64,000 nt of DNA from positions 28,081 to 92,080 of the forward strand of contig CAYMIN010000013.1 in assembly GCA_964390495.1 (NCBI GenBank), in the 5' to 3' direction. Under the pieces are notes generated by a model, which was not told the DNA's origin, did no database searches, and worked only from the letters and a program-made list of their open reading frames with translations. Both the position numbers and the translations under genes were made by a program. The DNA is from an uncultured Armatimonadia bacterium (GTDB lineage: Bacteria; Armatimonadota; Zipacnadia; Zipacnadales; UBA11051). This document shows positions 5,203 to 60,886 of this stretch, piece by piece. Position 1 is the first letter of the stretch; each line of letters starts with the position of its first letter.

Positions 5203-6846
5203 ATGACTTGGGACTTTGATAATACCGACAAGGCAAAGAAGCCGCAGCAAGTAGCTGAATCGTCGTCTGAAGAAGCCTCCGAAACAACCGGCGACGCTCT
5301 GGAAGCCGCCCTCGACCAGGCCTTGCCCGTTCACGTCGAGAAGGGCGATATCGTCACAGGCGTCGTCGCCGCGGTTGATGACCAGTTCGTCAGCGTTGAC
5401 ATCGGCACCAAGTACGAGGGCCTGATTCCCGCCTCCGAGTTTGCCGGTCCTGATGAGATGCCGGCCTTGGACGACAAGATTGAAGTTGCTGTTGTCAAAG
5501 TTGATGATAAAGAGAGCGTGGTCAGGCTGTCCAAGCGCAGGGCCGACTACGAGCGCGTCTGGAACCGCCTCACCGAGGCTGCCGAAAGTGGCGAAATCGT
5601 CGAGGGCATCGTCACCGAGCGCGTCAAGGGCGGATTGCGCGTGGACGTGGGCATGCCGGGTTTTGTGCCTGGCAAGCATGTAGCCACCCGCAACCTCCGT
5701 AACCTCGAGCGTTTTGTCGGCCAGTCGCTGCGCCTGCGCGTGCTCGAAGCCAACCGCGAGTCCAAGAAGCTGATCCTCTCCCACCGCGTGGCGGTCGAAG
5801 AAGAACGCGAACGCCGTCGCCAGGAGACCCTCGATCAGCTCGAAGAAGGCGTGGTCTGCGAAGGCAAAGTGCGCAGCCTCACCAGTTACGGCGCTTTTGT
5901 TGACCTCGGCGGCGTTGACGGGCTGCTCCACATCTCCGAAATGGCCTGGACACGTGTCAAGCACCCCTCCGAAGTGCTCAAGGTGGGGGATACGGTTCGC
6001 GTTGCCGTCCTGGACATTGACCGCGAGAACGACCGTATCTCACTTTCCAGGCGACAGATTCTGCCCGATCCCTGGAAGGCAGCTGCGCCCAATATCCGCG
6101 TCGGCAGTGTTCTCAAGGCGCGCGTCACCCGCGTGGTGCGCACCGGCGCCTTCGCGCAGTTGCTGGACCACGAAATCGAGGGCTTCATCCCCATATCCGA
6201 AATGAGCGCCAAACGCATCTCTGAGCCCTCCGACGCAGTCAGCGCCGGCCAGGAGGTTGATCTCAAGGTCATGGACATGCGCATCAAGGCCCGGCGGATG
6301 ACCTTGAGCCTCGTCGCCGCCGACCAGGAGAAGGAGCGCCGCGAGTACCAGCAATACATGGCCAACCAGGAACAGGCTAAGGTCACTCTCGGAGATCAGT
6401 TCGGTGACGTTCTGCAGCAGGCCGCCGTCGCCGCTGAAACCGAACCCGCGGCAGAACCACCATCCCAGCAAGAGCCCGAGCCGGAACCAGTCGCGGAGAC
6501 AGTGGAGCAACCGGCTGATCAAGAAACCACAGAAGAGCCCGACGCACCAGCGGAGCCAGAAGCGCCTGAAGAGCCAGCCGAGGAGCCCGAAAAGCCAGCC
6601 GAAGAACAGCCCGAAGAGGAGCCCGAAGAGGCAGCCGAAGAACAGCCCGAAGAACAGGCCGAAGAAGCAGCCGAAGAGCAGCCTCAAGAGGACCCTGAAG
6701 AAGCAGCCGAAAAGCCCAGAAAGGCCAAGCAAGCCGCCAAGCCGAAGAAAACCGCAGCCACCAAGAAAGCGAAAGAGCCCAAGAAAACCAAAAAGGCCAA
6801 GGCCGCGGCGGACAAATCAGACCAAGCCGAAGAGGCGGATGAGTAG
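5203..6846 (+). CDS. rpsA: 30S ribosomal protein S1 (four S1 domains) with ~150-aa acidic (EEQPEE repeats) then lysine-rich C-terminal tail
   Basis: Four S1 OB-fold repeats (GDIVTGVV..., GEIVEGIVTERVKGGLRVDVG, GVVCEGKVRSLTSYGAFVDLGG, GSVLKARVTRVVRTGAFAQL). A GAAGGGAG RBS lies upstream. The tail is low-complexity, P/E-rich then K-rich. Confidence 0.85.
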   Translation: MTWDFDNTDKAKKPQQVAESSSEEASETTGDALEAALDQALPVHVEKGDIVTGVVAAVDDQFVSVDIGTKYEGLIPASEFAGPDEMPALDDKIEVAVVKVDDKESVVRLSKRRADYERVWNRLTEAAESGEIVEGIVTERVKGGLRVDVGMPGFVPGKHVATRNLRNLERFVGQSLRLRVLEANRESKKLILSHRVAVEEERERRRQETLDQLEEGVVCEGKVRSLTSYGAFVDLGGVDGLLHISEMAWTRVKHPSEVLKVGDTVRVAVLDIDRENDRISLSRRQILPDPWKAAAPNIRVGSVLKARVTRVVRTGAFAQLLDHEIEGFIPISEMSAKRISEPSDAVSAGQEVDLKVMDMRIKARRMTLSLVAADQEKERREYQQYMANQEQAKVTLGDQFGDVLQQAAVAAETEPAAEPPSQQEPEPEPVAETVEQPADQETTEEPDAPAEPEAPEEPAEEPEKPAEEQPEEEPEEAAEEQPEEQAEEAAEEQPQEDPEEAAEKPRKAKQAAKPKKTAATKKAKEPKKTKKAKAAADKSDQAEEADE

Positions 6847-7816: not shown

Positions 7817-10800
7817 TTGGCGCTGGCCGGTCAACATAGAGTGCATCATAGCACCTGCCGAGGAGTGATTGTCTTGCAGAAGGGCCACACCAGACCTCTG
7901 GCTTCACTACTGCTCTTCTGTGTGCTGGTCGCAGTCTTACTTATCATATCATCCGTCGCCTCCACGCAGTCCTCACGCCTAGGTGCTGCGGGGCCGCTGT
8001 TGTCCCTCGACCAAATGCAGCGCCAGCCTCTGCTGCCCGGCCAGACTCCCGAGTTCTTCCGCTGCGCTACCTGCCCGGACGGCCAGGTCACTACCCAGCA
8101 GACCCCCGGCCCGGACCCCGATCAGAATATTACCGCCAAGGCCACCGCCTCTCAAGAGTGGGAGCCGAACACCGCCCCGGTAGTTGGTCAGAACCGCATC
8201 GCCTTTGCCAGCAACGGCGAAGACCTCATCAACAACCAAACCGGAATCGAGGGGCCTGACGGCTTCATTGACCCGACCTTGCCCGAGAATCCCGACTTCG
8301 ACCTCTGGCTGATGCGCCCTGATGGCACCCAACAGCAGAAGGTCATTGACCTGCCCGGCGACCAGCGCGATCCGGCTTTCGATCCCGGCGGCCGCCTCCT
8401 CGCCTATGCCTCCAACCACAGCGGCACTTATCAGATCTATACCGTCGAGGTCAGTACAGGTGTCACCCGCAGGATCACCACTCCGGAGGGCGGCGCCGGC
8501 AACAAGCGCCACCCCACCTGGTCAGCCGACAGCAACTGGATCGCCTTCCAATGCGACCGCCGCGGCAATTGGGACATCTTCAAGATTCTCTCCAACGGCG
8601 CTAGCGCCGAAATCCCGCTGGCCTTCAGCTCTAATGACGAGGTCGCGCCGGCCTGGTCGCCGACAACTCCCTATATCGCCTACCAAGTAACCATCAACAA
8701 TGTCAGCCGCATCTTCTCCATGGACACTGAGGGCGGCAACAGGACCCAACTCAGCAACGGCGGCGGCAACCCCAATGCCAACGACATTGACCCCGCCTGG
8801 CAGCCGCTCGGCCAGTCCTTGGTATTCGCTTCCGACCGCCTCGTCCCCGATTCCGGTGACACTACCAATGACTACAATATCTGGACCATGTCAGCCACTG
8901 GCGAGATCATCACCGGCGCCGCCTCGCTGATAAGCTCTGATGATCCCAACGACGTCTATGACGATAAAGACCCCACCTGGACGCCTGATCTGACCCAGCG
9001 CGCCCAGACCCGCTTCGTTTTCGCCTCTAACCGCCCGGTAGATGCCAACGACACCAGTGAACCCGACATCTGGGCCACCTTCGAAGAGGACATCCTGCCG
9101 CCGGAGCTGACCAAGGCTCCCGGCCGCGAAAATGCCTTACCGTGGGTTGACATTCGCAATCCAGCCCCCGGGGCCGACATCACCATCTCTGTGAGCGTCT
9201 ATGACCGCGACTCCGGTGTCGCCTCGGTCGTCGCCCTGCTCAAAGATCCCGAGATGAAGCTCTATGACTGGTCGCTTGCTATATTCGAGCCTACCAATAA
9301 CCTCGGCTGGCAAGCACTCGAGCGTGACTGCGTAATAGTTGATGGCAAGGAGCTTCTCGATGACGGGGTGCCTCCGGACCAGACGGCGGGCGATGGCATC
9401 TTCACCGGCACTTACACCACGCTGCCCACCCCGCGCGATTACATCATAGACATCGCCACAGTAGATGTCGTCGGCAACGGGATGACCTATGATGACATCT
9501 ATGGTTTCAGCACAGTTACCTTCAATCCCAATGACCGTGTCCTGTTTGTTGATGACTACTGTGAGGGCCAGGCCTTCATCTACCTGACTGGTATCAATAA
9601 CGACTGGCCGGCGCAGTTCCCGGTGGAGAGTTACTACCGCTGCAACCCCGGCTATTACCCGGGTCTTGAGCGCACGATTGACTTTGACAGCATCATCGCC
9701 TGGGCGGTTGATTACGACACTTCGGGATTTGGCGATGGACCAGCCGAAGAGCATTGCACGAGCGTGGACATCGAGGGCCATTACGATGTCTGGCGCATCC
9801 TTTGTCGCGGCCCCATCCCGGACACCATTCTCCGCAACTATCTCCCGACCGTGGAGTACCAGTTGGTGCCCGAAGACGCGCTGGCCGACCCGACCTGGGC
9901 GCTGCCCACCCGCGAAGTGCTGGTGGCCAACCGCGCCGTCATCTGGGCCGCCCCGCATACCGGTGATGTCTGGATAGCTGACGGCACCATCATGGATGCC
10001 GCGGTGCAAGGCCAGCTCAAGAACTTCCTGAACCAGGGCGGACGCCTCTTTATCTCCGGCGAAGACCTCGCCTGGGCCCTGACGATGGCTGGACGCACGA
10101 GCAACGACTTCCTCAGCAGATACCTGCGCGCCCAGTACCTAAGTGACGTCGCCGGCGGCGACGGCTTCACCGTTGAGGGCAACAACGACCCCTACAGCCC
10201 GGTATCGTGGGATGCCTGGGTGGGAACCGGCGCAAGCCATCCGGGCGTCGCGCCCAACTGGTGGCCCGACTGCTGCAACCCAGTGGCTCTTCTTACACCT
10301 GTAGCCAGTACAGCAGGCTATAGCGACGCTGCCGACCACCTTGGCCGGGGACGGGGTGGCTCGGTCCGCGCCGACGGCATCGTGCCCAGCGGAGACGTCA
10401 AGCTCTACGGCTACGGCGGCTTTGGCGGCACCGGCGCTGCCACGTGGTATGCCGACCCCGCCACCGGGGCGCACGTTGTCTATCTGGCCTTCGGCTTTGA
10501 AGACATCCATCGCAGCTACCGGCTCAGTGGGACGAGTCCCCCTCCTCATTGCCATAACCACCGCAGCCACCTGTTCCACAATTTCTTGTGCTGGGCCCGC
10601 ACCGCCGCCTTCCAAGGACGAGTAGTCTCCATCAGCGAAGGCGGCCAGCCGGTCACCGACCCTGAGCCGATCGTCGTCATCACCCAGGGCAACAACCGCT
10701 ACGCCGTCCGCTGCCAGAAGGACGGCACCTATGTAATCCAGGGCGTCAAGTCCGGCCAGTATTCCATGCAGGTGATACGCGTCGGCTACGAGATTGACCA

Positions 10801-13072
10801 CGCCGAGGGCGAGCACGCTCACGGCGGCTGGGCTCCCGTACAGGTGGACTTCGCCATCAAAGAAGCCCAGCCCGGCGCCATCGCCGGAACCGTGGTTTCT
10901 GAGGCAAGTGGCGATCCCATCGCCAATGTCACCGTCACTGTGTATGCGAAACCTGAACCCGAACCCGAGCCGGAACCGGGGCAGGTCGTTGCGGCCCAGG
11001 ACGAAGGCGACATCCCGATTGAGGACCTGGGCGACCCCGTTGTTCCACCGGTGCACACGGGCGCTGACGGCACCTTCGTGATTCCCGAGGTCCCGGTCGG
11101 CGACTATATCGTGGTCGCTGACGGCACCGCTGCCGGCTACGGTACCCAGCAGCTCGAGACCACGGTCACCCCGGGCGACAGCGCCAACCTTGCCTTTGTG
11201 CTCGGCGCTGCCGCCGGAGCTCTTGAGGTCCATGTCACCGCCGCCGACACTGGCGACGACATTGAGAATGCCACCATTCAGGTGCTTGACGAGAATGGCC
11301 AGCAGGTGGTTGTGCCTGCTCCCATGACCGGCCCGTCCGGCATCGTCAATATTCCTTTGCCTGCCGGCGACTACCAGGTGCGCGCCGCCTCCGCCGGCTA
11401 CGAAGCCTCGACCCTGCAGGGCGTTGTGGTGGTCTCTCAGGAGACCACACATCTCGACATCGCCCTCAACCGCGTGGCCGACGGCGCTGTCTCCGGCAAG
11501 GTCACCTCCGCTACCACCGGCCAACCCGTTGGTGACGTGCTCATCAGAGTTCTCTCCGGCGGCACTGTCAGAGCCACAGGCTATACCAGCGATCAGTTCA
11601 CCGACCCCGGCGACGGTACGCCGTCGTACAATTACTTTATACCTGACGTGCCCGCCGGCGAGGTCACTGTCCAGCCGGTCGTCTCCGGCTACGACCCACA
11701 GCCCGACCAGCGCGTTGTCACCGTCGTCAGTGGTGAGACCATCACCGGCGTCAGCTTCGTGCTGGAAAGCCTGCACGTCTTCCCCCAGGGCCTGCAGCTC
11801 ATCTCGCTGCCCTGGGACTTCAGCAGTGGCCAGAGCGACAAAGACCCGGCCAACTTGCTCGGGATTCCCGCTAGCCAGTTCCTCATGGCGACTTGGGAGA
11901 CCAGCACCGCCCGCTACCGCATTTATCCCAACGCCCCTGCCGACCGCTTCCGCCTCGGCACCGGCTACTGGCTGAATCTGGCGAGTCCCGCCGACCTGGC
12001 TCAGGAGGGCACCCCGCCCCTAACCGTTCACCAGATCTCACTACTTGCCGGCTGGAACCTGATTGGGGACCCGTTCCTATCCACTATCGACTTCTACGCA
12101 ACCAATATCCGCGCCCAGAACGGCACTCTGTACTCGGTCCAGGAGGCCCTGGCCCAGAATCTGCTCGGCTCCGGCCTGTTCGCCTATATGCTGGGCGGCT
12201 ACCGCATCGTCTCTGCCTTGACGCCCTATGTCGGCTACTGGCTCTACGCCAACGATCCCTGCAAGTTGGTCATTGATGAAAGCACGGATACAATGGCGGT
12301 AGGCACCCAGGCCGCGGCACCGGCTGTACCCGTGCCTGCCGATGGTTGGCTGTTACAGTTGCAGACCACGGCTACCGTTGCCGGCCTGCAGGACACCGCA
12401 GCCTATTTGGGCACCGCTGCCGGCGCCTCCGACGATTTCGATCCCGGTCTCGACCAGGCCAAGCCGCCGGTGCCGATTAGTGGTGGCTATGTCTATCTGT
12501 CACTAGGGGGCGCTAGTGGTCCGGATATGGCAGTTGACATCCGTAGTCAGCAGTCCAGTCAACAGCAGTGGGACCTGGAGGTGCAGACCAACCTCAGCGG
12601 CCAGCCGATTGAGATATCCTGGCCCGACATGTCCGGCCTGCCGCCGGCGACACAGCCGATTTTGACCGATCTGGCCACCGGCAAGCGGCTATACATGCGC
12701 ACCAACCGCGCTTATAGCTTCGCGGCGGACGGCACCAACCGCAGACTGCGGGTGAGCACCTCAGCGGCGGGTGTCGGCCAGTTGGCGATAACTGCCGCAG
12801 CCGCCTCCACCACACCCGCCGCGGCCACTGTCAGCTACACCCTGTCGCGCAACGCTCAAGTCAGCATTGATGTGTACAATATCAGTGGTCGTCTCATCAG
12901 CCGCGTGCTCGAGGAGCAGACCCAGACCGCCGGTCTGCAGTCGGTGGCCTGGCATGGCCGCAACAATGCCGGCGTCAAGGTGCCCAATGGCCGCTATCTG
13001 GTCCGCATCACCGCCCGCACCGACGACGGTCAGCAGGCCCAGGCTCTGACCCAGATGGCGATAACTCGTTAA
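7817..13072 (+). CDS. giant secreted multidomain protein (1751 aa): signal peptide, TolB-like PD40 beta-propeller, GATase1-like region, CarboxypepD_reg-like beta-sandwich repeats, PEPEPEPEP linker, shared tripartite C-terminal tail ending in FlgD-Ig/T9SS-type CTD
   Basis: TTG start at 7817. An alternative TTG at 7874 follows a GAGGAG RBS and gives the canonical signal peptide MQKGHTRPLASLLLFCVLVAVLLIISSVAS. PD40-like repeats are present (LLAYASNHSGTYQIYTVEVSTG..., WIAFQCDRRGNWDIFKI). CarboxypepD_reg-like segments are present (DGTYVIQGVKSGQYSMQV, GTFVIPEVPVGDYIVVADGTAAGY). The C-terminal 430 aa are paralogous to the tails of the ORFs at 16470 and 19882. Confidence 0.8.
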   Translation: MALAGQHRVHHSTCRGVIVLQKGHTRPLASLLLFCVLVAVLLIISSVASTQSSRLGAAGPLLSLDQMQRQPLLPGQTPEFFRCATCPDGQVTTQQTPGPDPDQNITAKATASQEWEPNTAPVVGQNRIAFASNGEDLINNQTGIEGPDGFIDPTLPENPDFDLWLMRPDGTQQQKVIDLPGDQRDPAFDPGGRLLAYASNHSGTYQIYTVEVSTGVTRRITTPEGGAGNKRHPTWSADSNWIAFQCDRRGNWDIFKILSNGASAEIPLAFSSNDEVAPAWSPTTPYIAYQVTINNVSRIFSMDTEGGNRTQLSNGGGNPNANDIDPAWQPLGQSLVFASDRLVPDSGDTTNDYNIWTMSATGEIITGAASLISSDDPNDVYDDKDPTWTPDLTQRAQTRFVFASNRPVDANDTSEPDIWATFEEDILPPELTKAPGRENALPWVDIRNPAPGADITISVSVYDRDSGVASVVALLKDPEMKLYDWSLAIFEPTNNLGWQALERDCVIVDGKELLDDGVPPDQTAGDGIFTGTYTTLPTPRDYIIDIATVDVVGNGMTYDDIYGFSTVTFNPNDRVLFVDDYCEGQAFIYLTGINNDWPAQFPVESYYRCNPGYYPGLERTIDFDSIIAWAVDYDTSGFGDGPAEEHCTSVDIEGHYDVWRILCRGPIPDTILRNYLPTVEYQLVPEDALADPTWALPTREVLVANRAVIWAAPHTGDVWIADGTIMDAAVQGQLKNFLNQGGRLFISGEDLAWALTMAGRTSNDFLSRYLRAQYLSDVAGGDGFTVEGNNDPYSPVSWDAWVGTGASHPGVAPNWWPDCCNPVALLTPVASTAGYSDAADHLGRGRGGSVRADGIVPSGDVKLYGYGGFGGTGAATWYADPATGAHVVYLAFGFEDIHRSYRLSGTSPPPHCHNHRSHLFHNFLCWARTAAFQGRVVSISEGGQPVTDPEPIVVITQGNNRYAVRCQKDGTYVIQGVKSGQYSMQVIRVGYEIDHAEGEHAHGGWAPVQVDFAIKEAQPGAIAGTVVSEASGDPIANVTVTVYAKPEPEPEPEPGQVVAAQDEGDIPIEDLGDPVVPPVHTGADGTFVIPEVPVGDYIVVADGTAAGYGTQQLETTVTPGDSANLAFVLGAAAGALEVHVTAADTGDDIENATIQVLDENGQQVVVPAPMTGPSGIVNIPLPAGDYQVRAASAGYEASTLQGVVVVSQETTHLDIALNRVADGAVSGKVTSATTGQPVGDVLIRVLSGGTVRATGYTSDQFTDPGDGTPSYNYFIPDVPAGEVTVQPVVSGYDPQPDQRVVTVVSGETITGVSFVLESLHVFPQGLQLISLPWDFSSGQSDKDPANLLGIPASQFLMATWETSTARYRIYPNAPADRFRLGTGYWLNLASPADLAQEGTPPLTVHQISLLAGWNLIGDPFLSTIDFYATNIRAQNGTLYSVQEALAQNLLGSGLFAYMLGGYRIVSALTPYVGYWLYANDPCKLVIDESTDTMAVGTQAAAPAVPVPADGWLLQLQTTATVAGLQDTAAYLGTAAGASDDFDPGLDQAKPPVPISGGYVYLSLGGASGPDMAVDIRSQQSSQQQWDLEVQTNLSGQPIEISWPDMSGLPPATQPILTDLATGKRLYMRTNRAYSFAADGTNRRLRVSTSAAGVGQLAITAAAASTTPAAATVSYTLSRNAQVSIDVYNISGRLISRVLEEQTQTAGLQSVAWHGRNNAGVKVPNGRYLVRITARTDDGQQAQALTQMAITR

Positions 13073-30320: not shown

Positions 30321-30340
30321 TCACTGTCCGCGATGCACTA

Positions 30341-30502
30341 GTGTCGTGTCCCAGAAACAACTTCACATAATTCGAATAGCTCACCAAACGCGTGCCTCGA
30401 CCTGCCCTGAGCAACGTCGCAGGGCAGCCCGAGTCACCATCGGCAAGCTCCACGCTAAACACATACAATGCGACAGCATTCTCAGCTTCCAGCCCGAGGT
30501 CG
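30341..30502. repeat. ~160-bp intergenic repeat, copy 1 of a direct-repeat pair flanking the ilv operon (contains conserved-structure hairpin 30401-30428)
   Basis: Shares GTGTCGTGTCCCAG, TCACATAA, AATAGCTCAC-AAAC-CGTG-CTCG, a hairpin, and AATGCGACAGCATTCTCAGCTTCCAGCCCGAGGTC with 36817-36941. Confidence 0.6.
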
Positions 30503-36802: not shown

Positions 36803-36816
36803 TATACTACACCCAA

Positions 36817-36941
36817 GTGTCGTGTCCCAGGCATAACCTCACATAACCCCAATAGCTCACTAAACCCGTGGCTCGGCCTGACCTGCGTCTCGTGCAGGTC
36901 AGGTGAGAATGCGACAGCATTCTCAGCTTCCAGCCCGAGGT
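36817..36941. repeat. copy 2 of ilv-flanking direct repeat (hairpin 36876-36902 with compensatory substitutions relative to copy 1)
   Basis: See 30341-30502. It lies between the ilvD start and the stop of the DUF1028 gene. Confidence 0.6.
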
Positions 36942-36951
36942 CTTCCGCGAC

Positions 36952-37668
36952 TTACCACTCCCGCATGGCCTTGAGCATATCGAATATGCGGCGTAGTTCC
37001 GCGATAGGGTCTTGGTGGTCATCCACTCGCAGGTCCACTACCCGGTCGGTAAGCCCGGCGGTGCCGCCGCCCTGACGGACGACTAGCAGAGCCGCCGATT
37101 GCTGCCCTCTGGTGTCACCGCCGGCGGCCTGGCCTGCTTCCAGGGCCTGCATCAGCCGCTCGCCCAGTACCTGTCCCGCTGCGGCCTGGAAGCTTGCGGC
37201 CATAGCCTCAACTACTTGCGGCCCGGCCAAGATGTTGCCCTGGGCCGAGAAATCCTCCCCGCAGACGCCTCCGGCCCATTGGGTACATTCGCCGCCGGTA
37301 TGATTCGCCGTGCGGCTCTGGTGGTCAATGATTCCCACCTGGCGCAGTTCGGGCCTCTCATCTGCCGCCAATATCTGCTCCAGGGCCTCTTGCGGCGGCA
37401 CTCTCGTGCCCAGCAAGCGCAGGGCTTCCGGCCCCAATTCGGGATTCACCGCTGCCTGGGTCGCCACCGCTCCGACTCCGGCCGCAGCCCAGGGCACGAC
37501 GCTGCCGACCGCGAAGTACTTGGACTGCACGGCCACTCCCAAGTCGCGGGTCTCGCCGTCACGTGCTACTATCGAGAAGGTTCCGGTAGGCGCCATCTCC
37601 ATGCCAGGGGCCTCGCCCATGAAGCGGATAGGATACTCGTTGGGTACAAAAAAGCCTCGTGTCCACAA
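36952..37668 (-). CDS. DUF1028-family protein (Ntn-hydrolase-like)
   Basis: GTFSIVARDGETRDLGVAVQSKYFAVGSVVPWAAAGVGAVATQA is the characteristic DUF1028 N-terminus, with Thr as the putative nucleophile after processing. The start may be MEMAPTG. Confidence 0.65.
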   Translation of the reverse strand: MWTRGFFVPNEYPIRFMGEAPGMEMAPTGTFSIVARDGETRDLGVAVQSKYFAVGSVVPWAAAGVGAVATQAAVNPELGPEALRLLGTRVPPQEALEQILAADERPELRQVGIIDHQSRTANHTGGECTQWAGGVCGEDFSAQGNILAGPQVVEAMAASFQAAAGQVLGERLMQALEAGQAAGGDTRGQQSAALLVVRQGGGTAGLTDRVVDLRVDDHQDPIAELRRIFDMLKAMREW

Positions 37669-38039
37669 TGGGACAAGAGGCTTGTTAGCTCCTGCGGTAC
37701 CACCCAGATTCCCGGCGCACGCTTGAGTTGCACCGGACTCTTTGGCGCAATAACGGGCGCACCCGGTCGGGCCTATTGCTATATGTTCGGCCCGACGGCT
37801 CGGGGGCGACCTTCGGCGGTCCGCTGGTACCGTCTCTCAGCACGACGACGGCTCTCTGTTCCTGGCGGAGTCCGCTTACTCCTCCCCTTCTTCGCCGTAA
37901 GCAGTATTCAGATTGTCTCCAGTATAGTACACCGCCTCAGATTCGTCAAGCGCCCCTTGCTTCGAGCCGCATTATTGCCCAACGCACCGGCGGGGTTTTG
38001 TTGAGCAGTCACGCAAATCTTCGGCGACTGGAGCTCCAG

Positions 38040-38230
38040 CGCGACAGGTTGTGTCGTTAGTAATGGCGGGGCCGGTCCAGCCGTTGTCGTGGTTTTTCGT
38101 GCCATTGTAGGGGCGCACGGTGTGCGCCCGCGCCGTTGCCGTTGTTCCCTCTCCCCCTGGAAGAAGGCTAGGGTGAGGGCTGCCGTTGTGTTGCCCCTGC
38201 CTTTGGTGTCCCTTTTTTCCCTGGCAGCAG
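38040..38230. repeat. composite repeat copy D (TGTGTCGT, GGGCGCAC-GGT-GTGCGCCC hairpin, CCCTCTCCCCC...GGGTGAGGG)
   Basis: A perfect 8-bp hairpin at 38112-38130. CCGTTGCC flanks as in copies A and B. It lies in a 630-bp ORF-free gap. Confidence 0.5.
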
Positions 38231-40386: not shown

Positions 40387-40536
40387 GACTGGCGGCTGTG
40401 GCTTCTCATTGACAGCCGGTCAGGACAATCCACCTGACGCGTGGCTCGGGCTTCCAGCCCCAGGCGGTTGCCATCCAGCGCTATTACATATTCCCTCTCA
40501 CTCACCAACAATGCAATCTGACAACTTGCTACCGAG

Positions 40537-43982: not shown

Positions 43983-44867
43983 ATGAAGAATCCGAAGCCC
44001 GGCTGCCGCTTTGTAGTCTTTGCCGACGTGCATTATGTGGTTCCGCCCCATCCGCGGCTGTCATGGCCGCAATTGGTCGAGAAGCTCCCTGAGCAGCCGC
44101 GCGTGACCGAGCTGATTGACACGATGCTGCCGATGGCTCTGGAGCAGGTCCATGCCGAGTTGCGGCCTGACTTCATTGTCTATGCGGGCGACCAGGTCAA
44201 CGTCGGCTGGGACGAGGAGGGCCTCGCCAACCAGCACGGCTTCCGCAACCTACTGGCCGAGGCTAGCTCTGCATCTTTCCCTCAATCCCGTGGGTCGGGG
44301 TTCCAGCCCGACAGTGATGAAGTGCCTGTCTATCTGGTCTATGGCAACCACGACCGCCCTCGCGAGCGCTATCTGGAGTTCTATGGCGAGACTATCTACA
44401 GCTTCACCTGCAACGGCTGCCATTTCGCCGTGCTCGACAGCGGCGTCATGCACCCGGAGGACGACTACGACCCTCCGGAAATCTTCACGACCGGGCTGGA
44501 CGAATTGCAGAACATGCTCGATCGAGCCGCCGGAGCGCCGGCAGCGGTCCTGCTGCATTTCTACATCTACCCGACCGACATAGTGGGCTACAGCTATCCG
44601 GCCGCGGCGGAGGCCATCGCGATGATCGAGAGCTATTCCCGCCCCGTACCGGTGCTCAACGGCCATTTGCACGATGGCCGTGTGGACATCGCCAACGGCC
44701 AGCTCTATTTCACTGCCCGCTCCTTCATCGAGTCGCCATTCTGCTTCTACCTGCACGAGTTGAGCGAAGACAGCCTGCAGATTGACGAATATATGCTCGA
44801 TTTCAACACCGGCAGATGGTCGCGATATCGCATGTGTGCTTTCGATCTCAGTCCGGCTTCGGCGTAG
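43983..44867 (+). CDS. calcineurin-like metallophosphoesterase, carrying an in-frame REP-like insertion
   Basis: FVVFADVHYV, YAGDQVN, VYGNHDRPRE, LLHFYIYP and NGHLHDG are the metallophosphatase motifs. Start at the ATG 43983; the ORF track's 43842 start overlaps the upstream gene. Confidence 0.75.
   Translation: MKNPKPGCRFVVFADVHYVVPPHPRLSWPQLVEKLPEQPRVTELIDTMLPMALEQVHAELRPDFIVYAGDQVNVGWDEEGLANQHGFRNLLAEASSASFPQSRGSGFQPDSDEVPVYLVYGNHDRPRERYLEFYGETIYSFTCNGCHFAVLDSGVMHPEDDYDPPEIFTTGLDELQNMLDRAAGAPAAVLLHFYIYPTDIVGYSYPAAAEAIAMIESYSRPVPVLNGHLHDGRVDIANGQLYFTARSFIESPFCFYLHELSEDSLQIDEYMLDFNTGRWSRYRMCAFDLSPASA
44268..44315. repeat. REP-family element (AATCCCGTGGGTCGGGGTTCCAGCCCGACAG) inserted in-frame inside metallophosphoesterase CDS
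   Basis: Near-identical to the intergenic copies at 45063-45098 and 46165-46198. It encodes the extra peptide SFPQSRGSGFQPDS between conserved blocks. Confidence 0.5.
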
Positions 44868-44929
44868 TTGACGTTCTTGGGCATCTTCTTGTCGTTGCCG
44901 TTGAATCGTGTTTGGGGGCCGGCGTACCC

Positions 44930-45170
44930 GCTGCGAAGCAGTGGATGAAAACGCTTCGCAAGGCGAAGCGTTGAGGGCTGGCCCAGCCGTTATCCTTAAG
45001 TCTTCTGGAGGGGCCGCATACGAGGCGGAAGCCCTAGCTTCCGCCGAGAATCCAGCCCAGCCGTTATCTCGCGTGGGTCGGGCTTTCCAGCCCGACAGCC
45101 GTTGCTGCTTTGCCTTTGCCCTTTCTCCCTTTGGGAAAGGGGGCGGGGGTGAGGGGGCCGTTGCCTCAGG
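44930..45170. repeat. composite repeat copy B (REP hairpin 45077-45096 + CCCTTTCTCCCTTTGGGAAAGGGGG + CGGGGGTGAGGGGG)
   Basis: It fills the gap downstream of the metallophosphoesterase gene. An artefactual ORF (44908..) reads through it. Confidence 0.5.
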
Positions 45171-45306
45171 ACCGGCCCGCGCCCAATCCCAGCCCCCAAC
45201 TTATCTAGACCCTAACTTCCAATCACAACGGTCCGCAGCTTCGTTTGTCCAAATATCTACATGCCCACAGGCCCAGCCTAGCGCCACACCAAAACCGCCC
45301 AAGGAG

Positions 45307-46023
45307 ATGGTATTCTTGCATTGCCGACTCAATCCGGCCCTCTTGGCCCTGGCTCTTGGCTTGTGCTTGGCCGCCTGCAGCGGCGCGGCGGAAACCGAGA
45401 AGCTGAAGATCACACTTAGCCTGACGAGTAAGAGCGGCGACTCCGGCAGCAGCACCGACACCGCCTGGGCCATGGACGGAACCTGGGCCTTCAGTCCAGC
45501 GCCGCGGCAGTTCTCCCTGCAGGTCAATTCCAGGTACACCAGGTCCGACGACGGCGCCAAGTTCGACCGCCTCAAAACCTGGTGGCGCTACCTCTGGGAG
45601 GACGTGCCCGAGACCGAGTGGCGACCGCTGTTTCTGGTCTCGACTGAAGGCGATCATGGCCTTGACCAGTTGCACACCCTAGCTGCTTTCGGGTATCGCA
45701 AGAGCCACGATTGCGGCTTCATCGAACTGACTGCGGGGGTTTCCAAGGACCTGCAGACCTCGGAGGCGTGGGTTGGCGACATCGGTGCGCTGGTCAGTTA
45801 CGAGCGCCAGTGGGGCAAGCTGTCGTGGGGGCTGAATCCACAAGGCGAGCTGGGCGTTCTGGGGGATGTGCGTTACCGCGACGACCGTTTCCGCTACAAC
45901 GTGGACACGGATTTGGGCTACAAGATTGGCGACCGTTTGCGCGCGACGTACCAGCTTACTTTCGGCAACACCACCGCGGATTCCCGTCGCACGCAGTTCA
46001 TCGGCATAACCTACGAGCGCTGA
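45307..46023 (+). CDS. lipoprotein / small outer-membrane beta-barrel-like protein (DUF481-like?), unknown function
   Basis: The AAGGAG-adjacent ATG at 45307 gives MVFLHCRLNPALLALALGLCLAACSG (lipobox LAAC). The protein is beta-rich with alternating aromatics. The longer 44908 start traverses repeat DNA and is rejected. Confidence 0.5.
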   Translation: MVFLHCRLNPALLALALGLCLAACSGAAETEKLKITLSLTSKSGDSGSSTDTAWAMDGTWAFSPAPRQFSLQVNSRYTRSDDGAKFDRLKTWWRYLWEDVPETEWRPLFLVSTEGDHGLDQLHTLAAFGYRKSHDCGFIELTAGVSKDLQTSEAWVGDIGALVSYERQWGKLSWGLNPQGELGVLGDVRYRDDRFRYNVDTDLGYKIGDRLRATYQLTFGNTTADSRRTQFIGITYER

Positions 46024-46029
46024 GGCCGA

Positions 46030-46232
46030 CCTGTCGTGTCTCGCTCAAAGACATGCCCGTAGCTCCGGCTTTCTTCGTCCACCTATCCCTCTTTGGATTC
46101 CCCCTTCCCTACCAGGCAAGGGGGTTAGGGGGTTAGGCGCCTTTGGCGTTGCCGTGCCCTTGCCAAGAATCCCGGGGGGCGGGCTTCCAGCCCGACGCCA
46201 TTGCCCTCGTAGGGGCGTCAGCCTGCCCAGCC
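46030..46232. repeat. composite repeat copy C between convergent genes (TGTCGTGTC, CCCTTCCC...GGGGGTTAGGGGGTTAGG, REP hairpin 46174-46198)
   Basis: Same modules as copies A, B and D but in a different order. It ends at the rel stop codon. Confidence 0.5.
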
Positions 46233-48425
46233 CTAACTGCCCGAGGTGGCTTTCCCGCTCAGCAGCCGCACATTGACCACGTCAATAAGCTGCGCGATGC
46301 GCTCCAGCACATGGTCGAGATCCTGGCGGCGGCTGATTTCGAGGGTAAGCTCCAGCCGCGCCAGGTGCGAGGCGGCTTGTTCGGCCCGCGCCACGGCGAT
46401 ATTGATATCGGCGTCACTGATGATGGCGGTGATATGTGACAGCAGCCCGACCCGGTCCACCGCTACGACCTCGATGTCCTGCCGAAAGAGAGCCTCTTGA
46501 TCCCCCGCTGACCAGGTCAGCTCCACGATCCGTTCCGGCTCCAACTGCGCCCGATAAGCCAGGTTCTTGCAGTCGGCCCGATGGATCGCCAGCCCCGACC
46601 CCCGCGTGATATAGCCGCGGATCGGGTCACCCGGCAGCGGGTTGCAGCATTTGGAGATGCGCGAGTGGAACCCATTCACCCCGCCGGCCGATACCGGCAG
46701 CGGCCCGGTCCCGCGTGCTAGCTGCTCCGGCGACACCTCGGTAGGCAGCAGCCGCTGCGCCTCCTCGACTAGGCTGTCGGGCTTGGCCGTTTTCTCCAGC
46801 ATGTGGTCAACCACGGTCTGCGCCTCGATGACGCCGTAGCCGATGGCGGCCAGCAGCGAGGCCTCATCCTGGTAGTCCAGATGCGCCGCGACTTCGGCCC
46901 GGTCCACCGCCTGCACCTGGTCGCGCGCGGCCGGACTTAGCCGCGCAATCGCCCGCTGCAGCCGCTCGCTGCCGATGGCGATATTCTCCTGCCGGCTCTT
47001 CTCGCGCAGGTAGCGACGCACCTTGGCCTTAGCATGCGAGCTTTGCACCAGCCGCAGCCAGTCGTGCCGCGGCTGGCCGCTGGGTGAGGTGATGATCTTG
47101 GCGATGTCGCCGTTTTTTAGCTCGTAGTCCAGCCCCACCTGCTGGCCGTTGACGATCGCTCCCACGCACTGGTGTCCGACCTCGGTGTGGATGCGGTAGG
47201 CGAAGTCCAGCGGCCCGGCCCCGCGCGGCAGGTCAATCACATCACCATCGGGCGTGAAGACGAATACCTGGTCCTTGAACAGGTCCACCTGCAAAAGCTC
47301 CAGGAACTCGTGGCTTTCCGACAGGTCGGTTTCTAGTTCCAGCACCTGCCGCAGCCAGGCCACCTGCTCGTCGAGCTGCCGGTCGGTCTCGCCCTCCTTG
47401 TAGCGCCAGTGCGAGGCCACACCATACTCGGCGGTCCGGTGCATGTCGTAGGTGCGGATCTGCAGCTCCATCGGCGCATGGTCCGGCCCCAGCACGGTGG
47501 TGTGCAGGGACTGATATTCATTGGACTTGGGCATGGCGATGTGGTCGGCGAAGGTATCGGGCACCGGCACCCACAAATCATGCACGATGCCCAGTACCGT
47601 GTAGCACTGCGTGACATCGTTGACGATCACGCGCAGGGCGTTGAGGTCGCGCAGTTGGCTGAAGTCAACATTCTGGCTTCTCATCTTCTGGTAGATGCTG
47701 TAGATGTGTTTGGCGCGGCCCTGCACGGTGGCCGCGAGGCCGCCCTCGGCCAGTTGCTGCTCCATCTCCCGCCGCGCCCGCTCGATGATCTTCTGCCGCT
47801 CCTGCTGCGTCAGGCCGAGTTTATGGACGATCTCGCGGAAGGCCTCCGGCTCCAGGTGCCGCAGCGCCAGGTCCTCCATCTCGGCTCGCAGCTTCTGGAT
47901 GCCCAGCCGGTGGCACAGCGGCGCGAAGATCTGCAGCGTCTCCTCGGCGGTGCGCAGCCGATTCTCCGGCGGCAGGTAGTCCAGGGTCCGCATATTGTGC
48001 AGCCGGTCGCTCAGCTTGATGAGCATCACGCGGATGTCCTCAGCCATTGCCAAAAACATCTTCCGCAAGTTCCGTGCCTGCTCTTCGCGATGCGAGGCGA
48101 AATCGAGCTTGCGTAGATTGGTGACGCCCTCCACCAGCCCGGCCACGGTATCGCCGAAGCGCTCCTGAATGTCAGCGGTGGATATGTCGGTGTCTTCAAC
48201 GGTATCGTGGAGGAAGCCGCCGGCGATGGACATCTGGTCGCTCTCGATGTCCGCCAGCACGCCGCCCACCTCCAGAGGGTGGACTATGTAGGGGTCGCCG
48301 CTCAAGCGCTTCTGGCCACGGTGGGCTTTGGCGGCGAAATCGTAGGCATCCACCAGCAGCTCGCGATCTACTCCCGGCCAGTAGCCTGATACGCGCTGGA
48401 TTACCTGCTCGACGGTGGTTGGCAT
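46233..48425 (-). CDS. rel: bifunctional (p)ppGpp synthetase/hydrolase Rel/SpoT
   Basis: HD hydrolase (HRGQKRLSGDPYIVHPLEV...FLHDTVEDT), synthetase (RAKHIYSIYQKMRSQ, RVIV), TGS and ACT C-terminal domains. Length 730 aa. Confidence 0.92.
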   Translation of the reverse strand: MPTTVEQVIQRVSGYWPGVDRELLVDAYDFAAKAHRGQKRLSGDPYIVHPLEVGGVLADIESDQMSIAGGFLHDTVEDTDISTADIQERFGDTVAGLVEGVTNLRKLDFASHREEQARNLRKMFLAMAEDIRVMLIKLSDRLHNMRTLDYLPPENRLRTAEETLQIFAPLCHRLGIQKLRAEMEDLALRHLEPEAFREIVHKLGLTQQERQKIIERARREMEQQLAEGGLAATVQGRAKHIYSIYQKMRSQNVDFSQLRDLNALRVIVNDVTQCYTVLGIVHDLWVPVPDTFADHIAMPKSNEYQSLHTTVLGPDHAPMELQIRTYDMHRTAEYGVASHWRYKEGETDRQLDEQVAWLRQVLELETDLSESHEFLELLQVDLFKDQVFVFTPDGDVIDLPRGAGPLDFAYRIHTEVGHQCVGAIVNGQQVGLDYELKNGDIAKIITSPSGQPRHDWLRLVQSSHAKAKVRRYLREKSRQENIAIGSERLQRAIARLSPAARDQVQAVDRAEVAAHLDYQDEASLLAAIGYGVIEAQTVVDHMLEKTAKPDSLVEEAQRLLPTEVSPEQLARGTGPLPVSAGGVNGFHSRISKCCNPLPGDPIRGYITRGSGLAIHRADCKNLAYRAQLEPERIVELTWSAGDQEALFRQDIEVVAVDRVGLLSHITAIISDADINIAVARAEQAASHLARLELTLEISRRQDLDHVLERIAQLIDVVNVRLLSGKATSGS

Positions 48426-48806
48426 ATTCCCATCTCGCTACGCTTCCAATGCCGTCCGGGCCGGACCTGCAGCCCGACGGCGCGCGCCTCACAACAGACG
48501 CCCAGTGCGGCTTGCTTGTTCAGGTCAATATACCACACAAAACGCCCGCGCTCAATAAGCCCCGCATCGCGGTGTGAGAACCACGGCGGCGGCCAAGGCG
48601 TCGGGCAGGCGTTCAGATGTTGACCAGACGTAGCTGCCGCGGCGCGCCAGCTTGACCTGCCAGGCCTCGGCGTGGTATTCTGCATCTGGCCTTGACCAAT
48701 TCCGCAATGAGGTCTCCTGGGCGCAAGCCCCGGCTCCTGGGAGCGGGCTTGCGTTCGCGTGTCACCGATTGTAGCAACTGACCCCTGGCTGTGGAGAGAT
48801 GAGGCC

Positions 48807-50342
48807 ATGTCGCCGAGCAGCGCCAATAGTCTCGCTGAGGCGGGCATGCGGGCAGCCGCCTGCTGGGCCGAGCGACCGGCGCTGAGCTTCGGGGACCAGA
48901 CCAGCACCTACCAGGAGCTGCATCAGCAGACTTGTCGCCTGGCCGGCGGTTTCAGAGAGCTTGGCCTCGGTGAGGGCAGCCGGCTGGCTGTCATGATACC
49001 GAATTGCCCCGAGTTCGTACTCACATACATGGCCGCGAGCCATGTCGGGGCCACTGTGGTGCCGGTACCGGCTCTCTTGGGGGCCGAGGAGGTCGCCTAT
49101 ATCCTCAACGATGTCGGCGCCCAGGCGATGGTCGTGGCGGAGGAGCTCGCGGCTATCGGCCACGGCGCGGCGCAACAGGCTGACACGGTCGAAGCCCTGG
49201 TGGTTTGCGGCGATACTCCGGAGCCTGACGCGGCTTGCTTCGGCGAGCTGATGGAGGCTACCGAGCCATTGGTTGAGCCGGCTGCGGTGTCCGCCGAGAT
49301 GCCGGCGGTTATCATCTACACTTCCGGCACCACCGGCAAACCCAAGGGCGCAGTGCTGACACACCGGAACCTGCTGGCTAATGTGGAGGCTTGCCGGCAG
49401 GCTATCAGCATATCCGAAGAGGACGTTTTCGTCACCGTGCTGCCGCTGTTTCATTCCTTCGGGGCGACGGTATCCATGTTGCTGCCGATGTTCTGCGGCT
49501 GCCACAATGTGCTTCTGCCGGGATTCTCGGCGCTGCATACGGTGGAGGCGATCCAACAGAACCGCGCCACCCTGGTCGCCGGCGTGCCGACGATGTACGC
49601 GCTGATGATGCAGGTGACGGATGCCGGCGGCTATGACCTGAGCTCGCTGCGCTTCGCCGTCAGCGGCGGCGCAGCTTTGCCGGATGAGGTGTGTGTCAGC
49701 TTCGAGCAGACCTATGGTGTGCCGATAATCGAAGGCTACGGACCGACCGAGGCCTCGCCGGTGGTCAGTGTGAACCCGATTGACGGGCGGCGCAAGCTCG
49801 GCAGTGTCGGGCTGCCGCTGCCGGGTGTGGAGACTGTGATCGCCGATGACGACATGGCCGAGCTGCCTGTGGGTGCAATCGGCGAGATCTGCGTGCGCGG
49901 GCCGAATGTCATGACCAGGTATCACAACGCCGAGGAGCTGACCAATGAGACGCTTGTCAACGGCTGGCTGCGAACCGGCGATATGGGGAAGCTGGATGAA
50001 GACGGCTACCTCTATATCGTGGACCGCAAGAAGGACCTGATTATAGTCGGCGGCATCAACGTCTATCCACGTGAGGTGGAGGATTGCATAGCCGGGATGG
50101 CACAAGTGGCGGAGGTAGCGGTGGTGGGCGCACCCAGCAAGCTGCGCGGCGAAGTCGTGGCCGCCTATGTGGTGCTGAGAGAGGGCGCCGAAGCCAGCGC
50201 CCAGCAGATTATTGACCACTGCCGGCGGCATCTGGCCCCGTACAAGGTGCCGAAACAGGTGCGCTTTGCCGATGGGTTGCCCAAGTCGCCGATCGGCAAG
50301 GTGCTGAAGCAGATGTTGAGATCGGCTAGCTCAATCGAATAA
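48807..50342 (+). CDS. AMP-dependent synthetase/ligase (long-chain fatty acid-CoA ligase-like)
   Basis: IIYTSGTTGKPKGAVLTHRNL (AMP-binding motif I), GYGPTEASP, WLRTGDMG and the P-loop-like PIGK lysine. RBS-preceded start at 48807. Confidence 0.8.
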   Translation: MSPSSANSLAEAGMRAAACWAERPALSFGDQTSTYQELHQQTCRLAGGFRELGLGEGSRLAVMIPNCPEFVLTYMAASHVGATVVPVPALLGAEEVAYILNDVGAQAMVVAEELAAIGHGAAQQADTVEALVVCGDTPEPDAACFGELMEATEPLVEPAAVSAEMPAVIIYTSGTTGKPKGAVLTHRNLLANVEACRQAISISEEDVFVTVLPLFHSFGATVSMLLPMFCGCHNVLLPGFSALHTVEAIQQNRATLVAGVPTMYALMMQVTDAGGYDLSSLRFAVSGGAALPDEVCVSFEQTYGVPIIEGYGPTEASPVVSVNPIDGRRKLGSVGLPLPGVETVIADDDMAELPVGAIGEICVRGPNVMTRYHNAEELTNETLVNGWLRTGDMGKLDEDGYLYIVDRKKDLIIVGGINVYPREVEDCIAGMAQVAEVAVVGAPSKLRGEVVAAYVVLREGAEASAQQIIDHCRRHLAPYKVPKQVRFADGLPKSPIGKVLKQMLRSASSIE

Positions 50343-59841: not shown

Positions 59842-60097
59842 ACGAGTTGTACTCCCACGGTCGGTGATGCTAGGTTGGGTTGTCCATTGCTAACAGCGCG
59901 AGATGATGGGGCCGAATGCCGCCAGCACCCTCGGGCTGCAAGCCCGAGACACACGCCGGTGGGCTTTGCGTGGAGGCTGTCAACTGCGCAGGCGAAACAT
60001 CAGGTCACGTGGCCGGGTTAGGCCGCGCATGCCGCCAACCTATCGCGGCTGAGCACGCCTGAGCTGCTAGCCGGTGACTGGGTGCCGTCGGCTCGGA

Positions 60098-60886
60098 CTA
60101 GGACTTGCGGATCGCGTCATAGTCAAGGCCGGCAGCGGCGACAGCGGCAGCCCAACTGCCGAAATTGCTCTCACGACTGGCCGCCTCCATCATCCCGCGG
60201 TAGCCCATGCGGCGCATGTTGCTATTATTGACCGACTTGCCCTGAGCGTGCAGGTTGCGGATGGTCGCGACGATTTTGTCCTGCGTCCAACGGTTGATTT
60301 TCCGGATTTTGGCGTAGTCAAGGCCGGCGGCTTCGATAGCGGCGCGCCAACTGCCGAAGTAGCGCTTGCTGCTGGCGGCCGAGACCAAAGCGCCGTGACT
60401 GTTTTTGGCCGCCTCGTGGCTCAGGTCCTCACCTTGGGCGTGGAGCTCCTGAATTTCCTCGATGATGCGCTGTTTGCTCCAGAAGCGGTGCTTGCTGATT
60501 CTCTCGTAATCGAGGCCGGCGGCGGCAATGGCATTGCGCCAACTGCCGAACATGCGGTCGTCAACGGCCACGACTACCAGATACTGGTGATTACGCTTGG
60601 CGGCGCTGTGAGAAAGGTCTTCGCCCTGGCGGTGGAGCCGCTGGATCTCCTGAATGATGCGTTCTTCCGTCCACTTGCGCTTGCGCTTGCAGACTTCTTT
60701 GGGGTCGAGGCCGGCTGCCCTGATAGCATCGCGCCAACTGCCGAAGAACTCGTCCTTGTAGGCGGTCGTCACCATGCCGCTGTAGCCGAGCTCGGCCATC
60801 CTGCGGGTGCTGAGGGAGTGGCCTGCCGTGTGCAGGTCTTCGATTGTCTGGATGATCTTTTCTCTCGTCCACTTCCGACGACTCAT
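60098..60886 (-). CDS. protein composed of four tandem ~65-aa 'homing endonuclease-associated repeat' (HNH_repeat-like) units; no nuclease domain
   Basis: Four repeats of (K/R)W(T/S).E.II..I..LH..GEDLS......N...L..AA....FGSW..AI.AAGLDY. The DNA shows about 198-bp periodicity (60106, 60304, 60502, 60700). The likely start is the ATG at 60886 after AAGGAG; the longer 60943 start overlaps the RBS. Confidence 0.65.
   Translation of the reverse strand: MSRRKWTREKIIQTIEDLHTAGHSLSTRRMAELGYSGMVTTAYKDEFFGSWRDAIRAAGLDPKEVCKRKRKWTEERIIQEIQRLHRQGEDLSHSAAKRNHQYLVVVAVDDRMFGSWRNAIAAAGLDYERISKHRFWSKQRIIEEIQELHAQGEDLSHEAAKNSHGALVSAASSKRYFGSWRAAIEAAGLDYAKIRKINRWTQDKIVATIRNLHAQGKSVNNSNMRRMGYRGMMEAASRESNFGSWAAAVAAAGLDYDAIRKS

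Follow-up and report, generated by a model that had tools for sequence, protein, structure and literature searches.

A dispersed GT[G/A]G-tagged hairpin repeat, probably a REP family, in an uncultured lineage related to Candidatus Zipacnadia

What is the short GC-rich hairpin that recurs between the genes of a 64-kb stretch of metagenomic DNA (hereafter the window), and how has it spread? The first-pass annotation had described a dispersed family resembling repetitive extragenic palindromes (REPs) or miniature inverted-repeat transposable elements (MITEs), lying in most intergenic gaps. The window has a G+C content of about 62% and is part of a 157-kb metagenome contig, JGI 3300029258 Ga0309772_1000161 (ENA ERZ27256770 k141_826336). 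Gene calls, taken from look-ups of four window proteins, cover the whole window and about 8 kb past each end, giving an extended contig of 80.9 kb with 59 protein genes and 54 intergenic gaps that total 6.6 kb. That the window holds a dispersed repeat family was borne out: the 19-mer core GTCGGGCTTCCAGCCCGAC has five matches with up to 3 mismatches, where 0.05 are expected, and the prefix CSCGTGGSTCGG has five exact matches, on the + strand only, where 0.10 are expected. The claim on the gaps was overstated, as copies occupy 7 of the 54. The family is a dispersed, almost wholly intergenic, multi-copy element whose hairpin is conserved through compensatory variants. We consider it, with a probability of roughly 70%, a GT[G/A]G-tagged REP of an uncultured Armatimonadota-like lineage related to Candidatus Zipacnadia, presumably mobilized by a REP-associated tyrosine transposase (RAYT).

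The anatomy of the unit carries much of this reading. The unit is about 35 nt long and reads ATCC-CGTGG-GTCGGGC-TTCC-AGCCCGAC-TCC; GTGG stands unpaired at the 5' foot of its GC stem, which has 7-8 bp and is closed by a loop of 3-5 nt, i.e., a short palindrome of the kind that characterizes GTAG-tagged REPs. When 144 copies, drawn from the window and from related genomes, are combined into a profile, the conserved elements are ATCC, CGTGG, the left arm GTCGGGC, the loop TT(T)CC, the right arm AGCCCGAC and TCC, with no conservation outside them. GTGG stands directly 5' of the stem in five of the eight clear window copies and in the 144-copy consensus; it is the usual tag, with GTAG in some copies of the same hairpin, in line with the GTRG tag of these REPs. 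Folded as single-stranded DNA, the hairpins reach -7 to -10 kcal/mol (z = -2.2 to -3.6), except for the copy at 40.4 kb, whose right arm is mutated (-8.2 kcal/mol, z = -1.3). Pairing is perfect in 125 of 134 tagged hairpins, and at least nine stem variants occur: GTCGGGC/GCCCGAC (80 copies), CTCGGGC/GCCCGAG (22), CACAGGC/GCCTGTG (6), GTCAGGC/GCCTGAC (5) and others in smaller numbers. Since each variant is fully self-complementary, pairing has been kept through double changes.

These features invite comparison with the GTAG super-family of REPs (Di Nocera et al. 2013, PMC3733652). According to the available parts of that survey, its members are palindromes of 20-40 bp with stems of 5-13 bp and an unpaired GTAG tag (GTRG in some families, and mostly GTGG in family GTAG-20 of Opitutus terrae), and they form sub-families related by compensatory changes. 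They occur in clusters, in tandem reiterations that include flanking DNA, with long self-complementary loop inserts and as in-frame intragenic copies, and are found in the Planctomycetes-Verrucomicrobia-Chlamydiae (PVC) bacteria and in Chloroflexi; some families flank RAYT genes and others do not. The repeat described here agrees with them in its size of 20-40 nt, in its GC stem of 6-9 bp with a short loop and an unpaired GT[A/G]G at one foot, in its compensatory sub-families, its clusters and tandem reiterations, its long-loop variants and in-frame intragenic copies, and in its occurrence in PVC and Chloroflexi-type phyla. All defining features of a GTAG-tagged REP that could be checked are present. 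The differences are a host of Armatimonadota/Zipacnadia type, not among the phyla named in the available parts of the survey; a predominance of single copies and head-to-tail arrangements instead of head-to-head dimers; and arrays made of the left arm only, which those parts do not describe.

A second line of evidence comes from related genomes. We scanned species-representative genomes in 8-kb blocks with the composite pattern CGTGGSTCGGGSTTN{0,2}CCRGCCC, which matched at least 93 blocks. Among the matches listed, 42 blocks belong to CSMAG_1176 (JAUVVY01, GCA_030604405.1), a metagenome-assembled genome (MAG) that is syntenic with our region at 79-86% nucleotide identity and is referred to below as the sister genome, and 22 belong to the Zipacnadia MAG Meg22_1012_Bin_300. 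The other listed matches are scattered over other Armatimonadota, Phycisphaerae, Planctomycetia, Gemmataceae, Verrucomicrobiota, Poribacteria and Chloroflexota, some of them as tandem arrays (blocks L023, L028, L062 and L077); a few of these scattered matches are likely due to chance. The repeats are abundant in MAGs of Candidatus Zipacnadia, a class of Armatimonadota, and the source label "Armatimonadota" is also attached to a homologue of a window protein and to a homologue of the RAYT of the sister genome. When up to 2 mismatches are allowed, the retrieved blocks contain at least 67 copies in CSMAG_1176 (311 kb) and at least 39 in the Zipacnadia MAG (144 kb). To place them, we used a codon-usage gene caller trained on the window genes; run on these training genes themselves, it found 57 of the 59 and made no false calls. 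Predicted coding sequences hold 6 of the 67 copies in CSMAG_1176, where 81% of the sequence is coding, and 6 of the 39 in the Zipacnadia MAG, where 75% is; the family is high-copy and mainly extragenic, as GTAG-tagged REPs are. The intragenic copies in the related MAGs nearly always encode RGSGFQPD or, on the other strand, SGWKPDPR, a restriction in reading frame that is expected if only tolerable frames survive. We also noticed that CSMAG_1176 and the Zipacnadia MAG share a near-identical protein segment (L026 around 7272 and L033 around 6580) with an "LSEVEG"-type module and the repeat as SRGSGFQPDS, which points to close relatives or a shared gene. The repeat is not a phage feature, since a scan of viral contigs gave a single match, and Rfam at gathering thresholds returned nothing at the repeats, its only hits in the window being a T-box and a tRNA. 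A search of the full-text literature with the core sequence matched only unrelated primers, and the core is absent from the text and supplementary files of PMC3733652, the figures being outside that search.

Besides the basic unit, the family comes in two further forms. Half units consist of the tag, left arm, loop and an A-rich tail of about 11 nt, without the right arm; in the two related MAGs, one to nine of them (nine in L060) precede about half of the full units, and their spacing peaks sharply at 27-28 nt. Long forms, 75-110 nt in length, have the tag and a basal stem that encloses one or two extra hairpins. Copies occur together with further recurrent modules in mosaics, in which linkers resembling GCCGTTGCC often join the parts; the other modules are CTCTCCC...GGGAGAGGG...GGGGTGAGGG, GGAGGGGCC-variable hairpin-GGCCC and a GTAG-GGGCGCAC hairpin.

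Reading every gap of the window gave eight clear copies, all on the + strand and all within 22.7-46.2 kb. The first (22765-22786), in a gap between two + strand genes, is a short form with a truncated tag, CGCG-TCGGGC-TTCCG-GCCCGAC, with 1 mismatch to the 19-mer (-8.9 kcal/mol as a DNA hairpin, z = -2.3). The next three had been taken for degenerate copies at 28212-28245, 30481-30502 and 36920-36941; they turned out instead to be halves of long forms with nested hairpins. In the uvrB/uvrC gap, the long form CGCGTGG-GTCGGGC-TTTTCC-[61-nt quasi-palindromic insert]-GCAGCCCGAC spans 28212-28301, and in the DNA fold its basal stem pairs around the insert; upstream of it lies a degenerate half unit, CGCGGCTCGGGCTTGC (28154-28169, +), that fits the half-unit pattern. 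At 30389-30498 (+) there is a composite copy, in which the tag and a basal stem CTCG...CGAG enclose a nested hairpin (30389-30433), followed by the right part of a second long form (30467-30498). The fourth copy, CCCGTGG-CTCGG-[two nested hairpins]-GCTTCCAGCCCGAG at 36865-36939, lies in the DUF1028/ilvD gap inside an ilv operon on the - strand and folds into a three-way junction (-27.2 kcal/mol, z = -6.6); its architecture recurs in CSMAG_1176 at the orthologue of the 40.4-kb copy. The latter is the short form CGCGTGG-CTCGGGC-TTCC-AGCCCCAG in the Band7/FMN_red gap (40438-40463), preceded by a degenerate half unit (40391-40407, +). As had been noted, the copy at 44291 lies inside a coding sequence, a metallophosphoesterase gene (Metallophos, 43983-44867), where a 45-nt in-frame insertion (44268-44312, +) encodes SASFPQSRGSGFQPD and comprises a headless half-unit remnant and a full unit. 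The proposed hotspot at 44.9-46.2 kb does hold two full copies, on either side of the gene at 45316-46023: a short form with a TTTCC loop (45070-45096; -9.8 kcal/mol, z = -3.6) inside a 448-nt mosaic gap (44868-45315), and the full unit CGGGGGG-CGGGC-TTCC-AGCCCGAC (46173-46196), which follows a degenerate half unit (46152-46172, +) in the convergent gap between the gene for a hypothetical protein, hyp235, and relA. Up to three diverged copies lie on the - strand of the extended contig. The sequence reported at 59925-59948 can be retained as a diverged - strand copy (CTCGGGC-TTGC-AGCCCGAG, 59930-59948), its tag being degraded, with 3 mismatches to the core, and its membership uncertain; a further degenerate - strand copy lies just beyond the window, downstream of clpX (window coordinate 70258), and is itself conserved at the orthologous position in CSMAG_1176. 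The sequence at 48451-48480 is best removed from the list, since the GC hairpin there (48454-48478, no strand assigned) has no tag and a different loop and is probably unrelated to the family.

Several other repeats share these gaps. Two leaders of 70 nt (30340-30409 and 36816-36885) are paralogous, 83% identical and of the form AGTGTCGTGTCCCAG...AATAGCTCAC; each stands ahead of a long-form copy (the first precedes the composite copy), one at the 3' end of the ilv operon and the other within it, and a promoter-like site (GGGACA-16-TATAGT, - strand) overlaps the second. The CTCTCCC-TGTG-GGAGAGGG..GGGGTGAGGG module is found in the same gaps as the repeat, at 28318-28354, 38147-38180 and 45119-45157, with a degenerate copy around 46085-46140; in CSMAG_1176 it also comes in long forms into which a hairpin, GGGTACCCAC..GTGGGTGAG, is inserted. 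A third module, GGAGGGGCC-hairpin-GGCCCAGCCGTT at 45007-45065, has the inner hairpin GGCGGAAGC-CCTA-GCTTCCGCC; near-identical copies occur in CSMAG_1176 (L060 and L098), and other GGAGGGGCC...GGCCC copies keep the frame with quite different inner hairpins.

Alignment of the window with the orthologous regions of CSMAG_1176 shows gains, losses and remodelling of copies within the time that two species have taken to diverge to about 85% nucleotide identity. The ilvB/ilvD gap has a copy in CSMAG_1176 and no recognisable one in the window, while a 230-nt mosaic (37980-38210) is found in the window only. The Band7/FMN_red gap holds the short form in the window and a long form with two nested hairpins in the sister genome, the extra DNA lying exactly between CTCGG and GCTTCC, the same breakpoint as in the window copy at 36865. 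In the hotspot gap between Metallophos and hyp235, 448 nt with a short form face 118 nt with a long form in the sister genome, and in the hyp235/relA gap the same kinds of module are reordered, the sister keeping only the right half of the hairpin. The clearest single event is the insertion in the metallophosphoesterase gene, which is missing from all 11 of 11 homologues, including a 79%-identical orthologue, and appears as a clean 45-nt gap in the DNA alignment. Its right border is the final base of the right arm, and its left border lies 21 nt upstream of CGTGG, in an apparent headless half unit. No convincing target duplication was found at this insertion; there is at most an ambiguous 2-nt AG repeat at its borders.

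Two alternatives to a REP were considered first. One holds that the family is a self-propagating palindromic satellite, multiplied without a dedicated transposase, through slippage and template switching during replication and through recombination of copies with one another. The half-unit minisatellites of one to nine units with their sharp 27-28-nt period, the short and long forms at one orthologous site and the modules shuffled within gaps are what such a satellite would leave behind, and no RAYT here is demonstrated to be cognate for the repeat. Slippage, however, fails to explain dispersal over dozens of unlinked gaps, and neither the clean 45-nt insertion in a conserved coding sequence nor the conserved unpaired GT[G/A]G tag, identical to the tag by which known REPs are recognized by RAYT (PMC3333891), is accounted for, so that we regard a satellite as unlikely. 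The other is a MITE in the strict sense, derived by deletion from a DDE-type insertion sequence, bounded by terminal inverted repeats and flanked by target-site duplications. The element is indeed small, non-coding, dispersed and intergenic, with long forms of 75-110 nt. However, its sole inverted repeat is the 7-8 bp hairpin stem of a unit of about 35 nt, the datable insertion has the ambiguous AG repeat at most, and a single Y1 transposase is the only transposase homologue that two RAYT queries found in about 0.7 Mb of copy-bearing blocks. Since terminal inverted repeats other than the hairpin itself are missing and no target-site duplication is evident at that insertion, the MITE-like part of the initial description can hardly be upheld.

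If the family were kept for its effect on transcripts, its orientation should follow transcription, and it does not. We weighed the possibility that the copies are host-selected RNA elements, i.e., terminators or stabilisers of mRNA 3' ends maintained by selection and not by mobility. Within the window this looks plausible: 7-8 of 9 copies follow stop codons and point in the same direction as the gene upstream, CSMAG_1176 retains the clpX-downstream copy at the corresponding position, mRNA can be stabilised by REPs in other bacteria (according to the available parts of PMC3733652), and a near-palindromic hairpin could fold in the transcripts of either strand. In the related MAGs, on the other hand, copies in gaps between tandem genes are co- and anti-oriented in equal measure (16 versus 19 in CSMAG_1176, 10 versus 11 in Zipacnadia), copies occur in convergent as well as divergent gaps, and those with and without half units behave alike. 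A transcription-linked orientation bias was accordingly rejected in both genomes, with orientation random relative to the flanking genes over 106 copies, and orientation in this family is independent of transcription. The co-orientation seen in the window is thus not general in related MAGs, which leaves a directional terminator role unsupported. Similarly, the placement of copies downstream of genes or between convergent genes, as first described, holds within the window, whereas in the sister genomes every type of gap is used, including divergent ones. No T tract follows any copy in any gap read, and the terminator and promoter scan gave no signal at any copy. Together with copies in promoter-side divergent gaps and inside coding sequences and with the rapid turnover between sister species, this argues against termination or mRNA stability as the reason for the family, and such a role offers no explanation for the unpaired GTGG tag or the half-unit arrays. 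We consider the RNA-element explanation quite unlikely.

Orientation is instead related to GC skew. In a regression of GC skew over the 42 CSMAG_1176 blocks, gene orientation contributed with beta = +0.037 and element orientation, independently of it, with beta = -0.027 (p = 5e-5), the two being uncorrelated with each other (r = -0.006). Along the extended contig, and irrespective of gene strand, skew stays negative between 7 and 47 kb and turns positive beyond that; the negative stretch contains all eight + strand copies, and the positive stretch the two or three degenerate - strand ones (Fisher p = 0.02). Strand asymmetry linked to replication is known to arise from single-strand DNA transposition in the IS200/IS605 family, according to the available parts of PMC3333891 and PMC6006769. 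The change of skew sign at about 47000-49000, which occurs regardless of gene strand, may mark a replication origin or terminus; no enrichment of DnaA boxes was seen near it, in the gap between relA and an AMP-ligase gene (48426-48806).

An association with a RAYT or IS200-like transposase had been proposed as a check on the REP reading, and the result is mixed. We compared the Escherichia coli RayT (NC_000913.3) by phmmer with all open reading frames of the 93 blocks and the contig, and repeated the search with the RAYT of CSMAG_1176. One RAYT gene was matched (L014 6055-6540 in CSMAG_1176, E = 1e-8), which has the HUH motif and a Pfam Y1_Tnp match (E = 3.9e-10). Two copies of the family lie 60-150 nt upstream of it, interleaved head-to-tail with a second hairpin, GTAG-(G)CGCGCGGGC-TT(A/G)(C/T)A-CC(C/G)CGC; downstream, at least seven tandem units of GTAG-GGCGCGGGC-TTGTA-CCGCGCC form an array that reaches the contig end. 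A RAYT with two copies upstream is thus present in the sister genome, but it is flanked mainly by a different GTAG REP. Its closest relatives in the protein collection are 60-66% identical, and JGI applies the name RayT to many of the 120 homologues listed. These relatives are flanked by inverted pairs of the second hairpin type, with the stop codon overlapping GTAG. A RAYT is thus found alongside the family, with copies close by, and is at most a candidate for the cognate enzyme. Since the hairpin types share GT[A/G]G-G..CGGGCTT, cross-recognition is conceivable. The GTAG-tagged type that directly flanks the RAYT gene and its homologues is separate from the family; it reads GTAG-GGGCGCAC-GGTG-TGCGCCC in the window (38107-38129 and 46209-46228) and GTAG-GGCGCGGGC-TTGTA-CCGCGCC in CSMAG_1176 (L014 5820-6766).

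Several results weigh against a GT[G/A]G-tagged REP moved by a RAYT. Two RAYT queries found no RAYT in the 81-kb contig, and a close orthologue of the sister RAYT from the window organism was not found either, the best candidates reaching 66% identity in the protein collection and 55% among metagenome contigs. The RAYT of CSMAG_1176 and its relatives P0001, P0002 and P0005 have the other REP, GTAG-GGCG(C/G)GG...CC(G/C)CGCC, as nearest flank; the family repeat is found in 0 of 80 metagenomic RAYT loci (46-55% identity), which carry GTAG-CCGGGATC or GTAG-GGCGGGG hairpins instead; and no RAYT with the family repeat as nearest flank was seen among the closest protein relatives and these 80 loci. 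Copies are single or in head-to-tail tandem, not the inverted dimers (REP doublets forming hairpins, REPINs, and bacterial interspersed mosaic elements, BIMEs) that are typical of many REP families, and arrays of left-arm-only half units are not described in the available parts of PMC3733652 and PMC3333891. The skew bias has the same sign in the Zipacnadia MAG but is not significant there (p = 0.12), and the GTGG-headed strand is the C-rich one, contrary to a naive analogy with IS608 if that strand is the active one.

The GT[G/A]G-tagged REP nevertheless remains our preferred reading, and the REP-like character first suggested is upheld by the unpaired tag, the compensatory stems, the intergenic bias, the dozens of copies in relatives, the presence or absence of copies at orthologous sites and the nearby RAYT. 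By analogy with other GTAG-tagged REPs, the repeat would be non-autonomous, with a RAYT-type HUH/Y1 transposase recognizing tag and hairpin together and processing the element in single-stranded form. Tandem half units and nested forms may be by-products of imprecise cleavage and rejoining, or of a rolling-circle-like amplification, and any effects on mRNA ends would be secondary. The best-studied parallel is the REP/BIME system of E. coli with TnpA-REP (Ton-Hoang et al. 2012, PMC3333891), an enzyme that requires GTAG 5' of the hairpin foot and for which a rolling-circle-like model of tandem amplification has been proposed. Shared with it are the tetranucleotide tag 5' of the hairpin foot, the mosaic clusters joined by linkers with a variable number of tandem units per locus, and a Y1/HUH transposase gene among the repeats, here in the sister genome. 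Unlike this system, most of our copies pair perfectly, whereas TnpA-REP needs a mismatch in the stem; BIMEs are inverted pairs, unlike the copies of this family; and the predicted RAYT is immediately flanked by another REP type. With REPINs (Bertels and Rainey 2011, PMC3116915) the family has in common a REP-derived, presumably RAYT-associated and vertically persisting population of repeats in the genome. A REPIN, however, consists of two inverted REPs and a spacer, and the close pairs seen here are direct repeats (39-175 nt spacing) with no inverted pair among them; being single or in direct tandem, the copies are not REPINs. Rickettsia palindromic elements and other intragenic REPs likewise insert palindromes in frame and in a restricted frame into conserved proteins, but the Rickettsia elements have a CGTC tag and are longer, and intragenic copies are a small minority here, at about 9%.

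The family may also be read differently, as a distinct REP subclass that spreads without inverted dimers, with a site-specific single-strand nuclease or transposase cutting at the hairpin foot and in the left arm (around CGG^GC). Such cuts would yield left-arm minisatellites of 28 nt, other hairpins nested at that point in the left arm, and dispersed copies that take their orientation from the replication strand and not from transcription. The half-unit arrays, the breakpoint common to the long forms, the ends of the 45-nt insertion and the skew-linked orientation are all compatible with this proposal, which we hold to be improbable next to a conventional GT[G/A]G-tagged REP. The left-arm-only 28-nt arrays, the recurrent nested-hairpin breakpoint and the skew-linked, transcription-independent orientation raise this family slightly above the routine.

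A few further features of the region were recorded. A T-box leader (37666-37901, -; Rfam, 112 bits) lies upstream of the DUF1028 gene and the ilvD-ilvB-ilvN-(two unnamed genes)-ilvC operon; the CSMAG_1176 alignment has a gap over the start of the DUF1028 region, and the sister genome may lack this gene. A 12-nt periodic repeat (6568-6711) in a ribosomal protein S1-like gene encodes a Glu/Pro/Ala-rich C-terminal tail, and a gene with weak HNH_repeat Pfam matches contains four internal repeats of about 195 nt (60105-60783, -). Between the ENA and JGI assemblies, the length of the contig differs by 18 nt, 12 nt of which are a 4-codon indel in the gene for a Tricorn-like protein of 1732/1736 aa (window 7874-13072).

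For annotation, these findings mean that the gaps concerned should be masked as repeats and that the 15-residue insert of the phosphoesterase should be treated as repeat-derived. For REPs at large, they add a GT[G/A]G-tagged REP family in Zipacnadia-related Armatimonadota, a phylum not named in the available parts of the survey of such repeats (PMC3733652). They also show cleanly how REPs turn over in nature between two syntenic species, one event being an in-frame insertion in a conserved enzyme that can be dated, and they supply orientation data that separate the effects of transcription from those of the replication strand, which bears on how REPs move.

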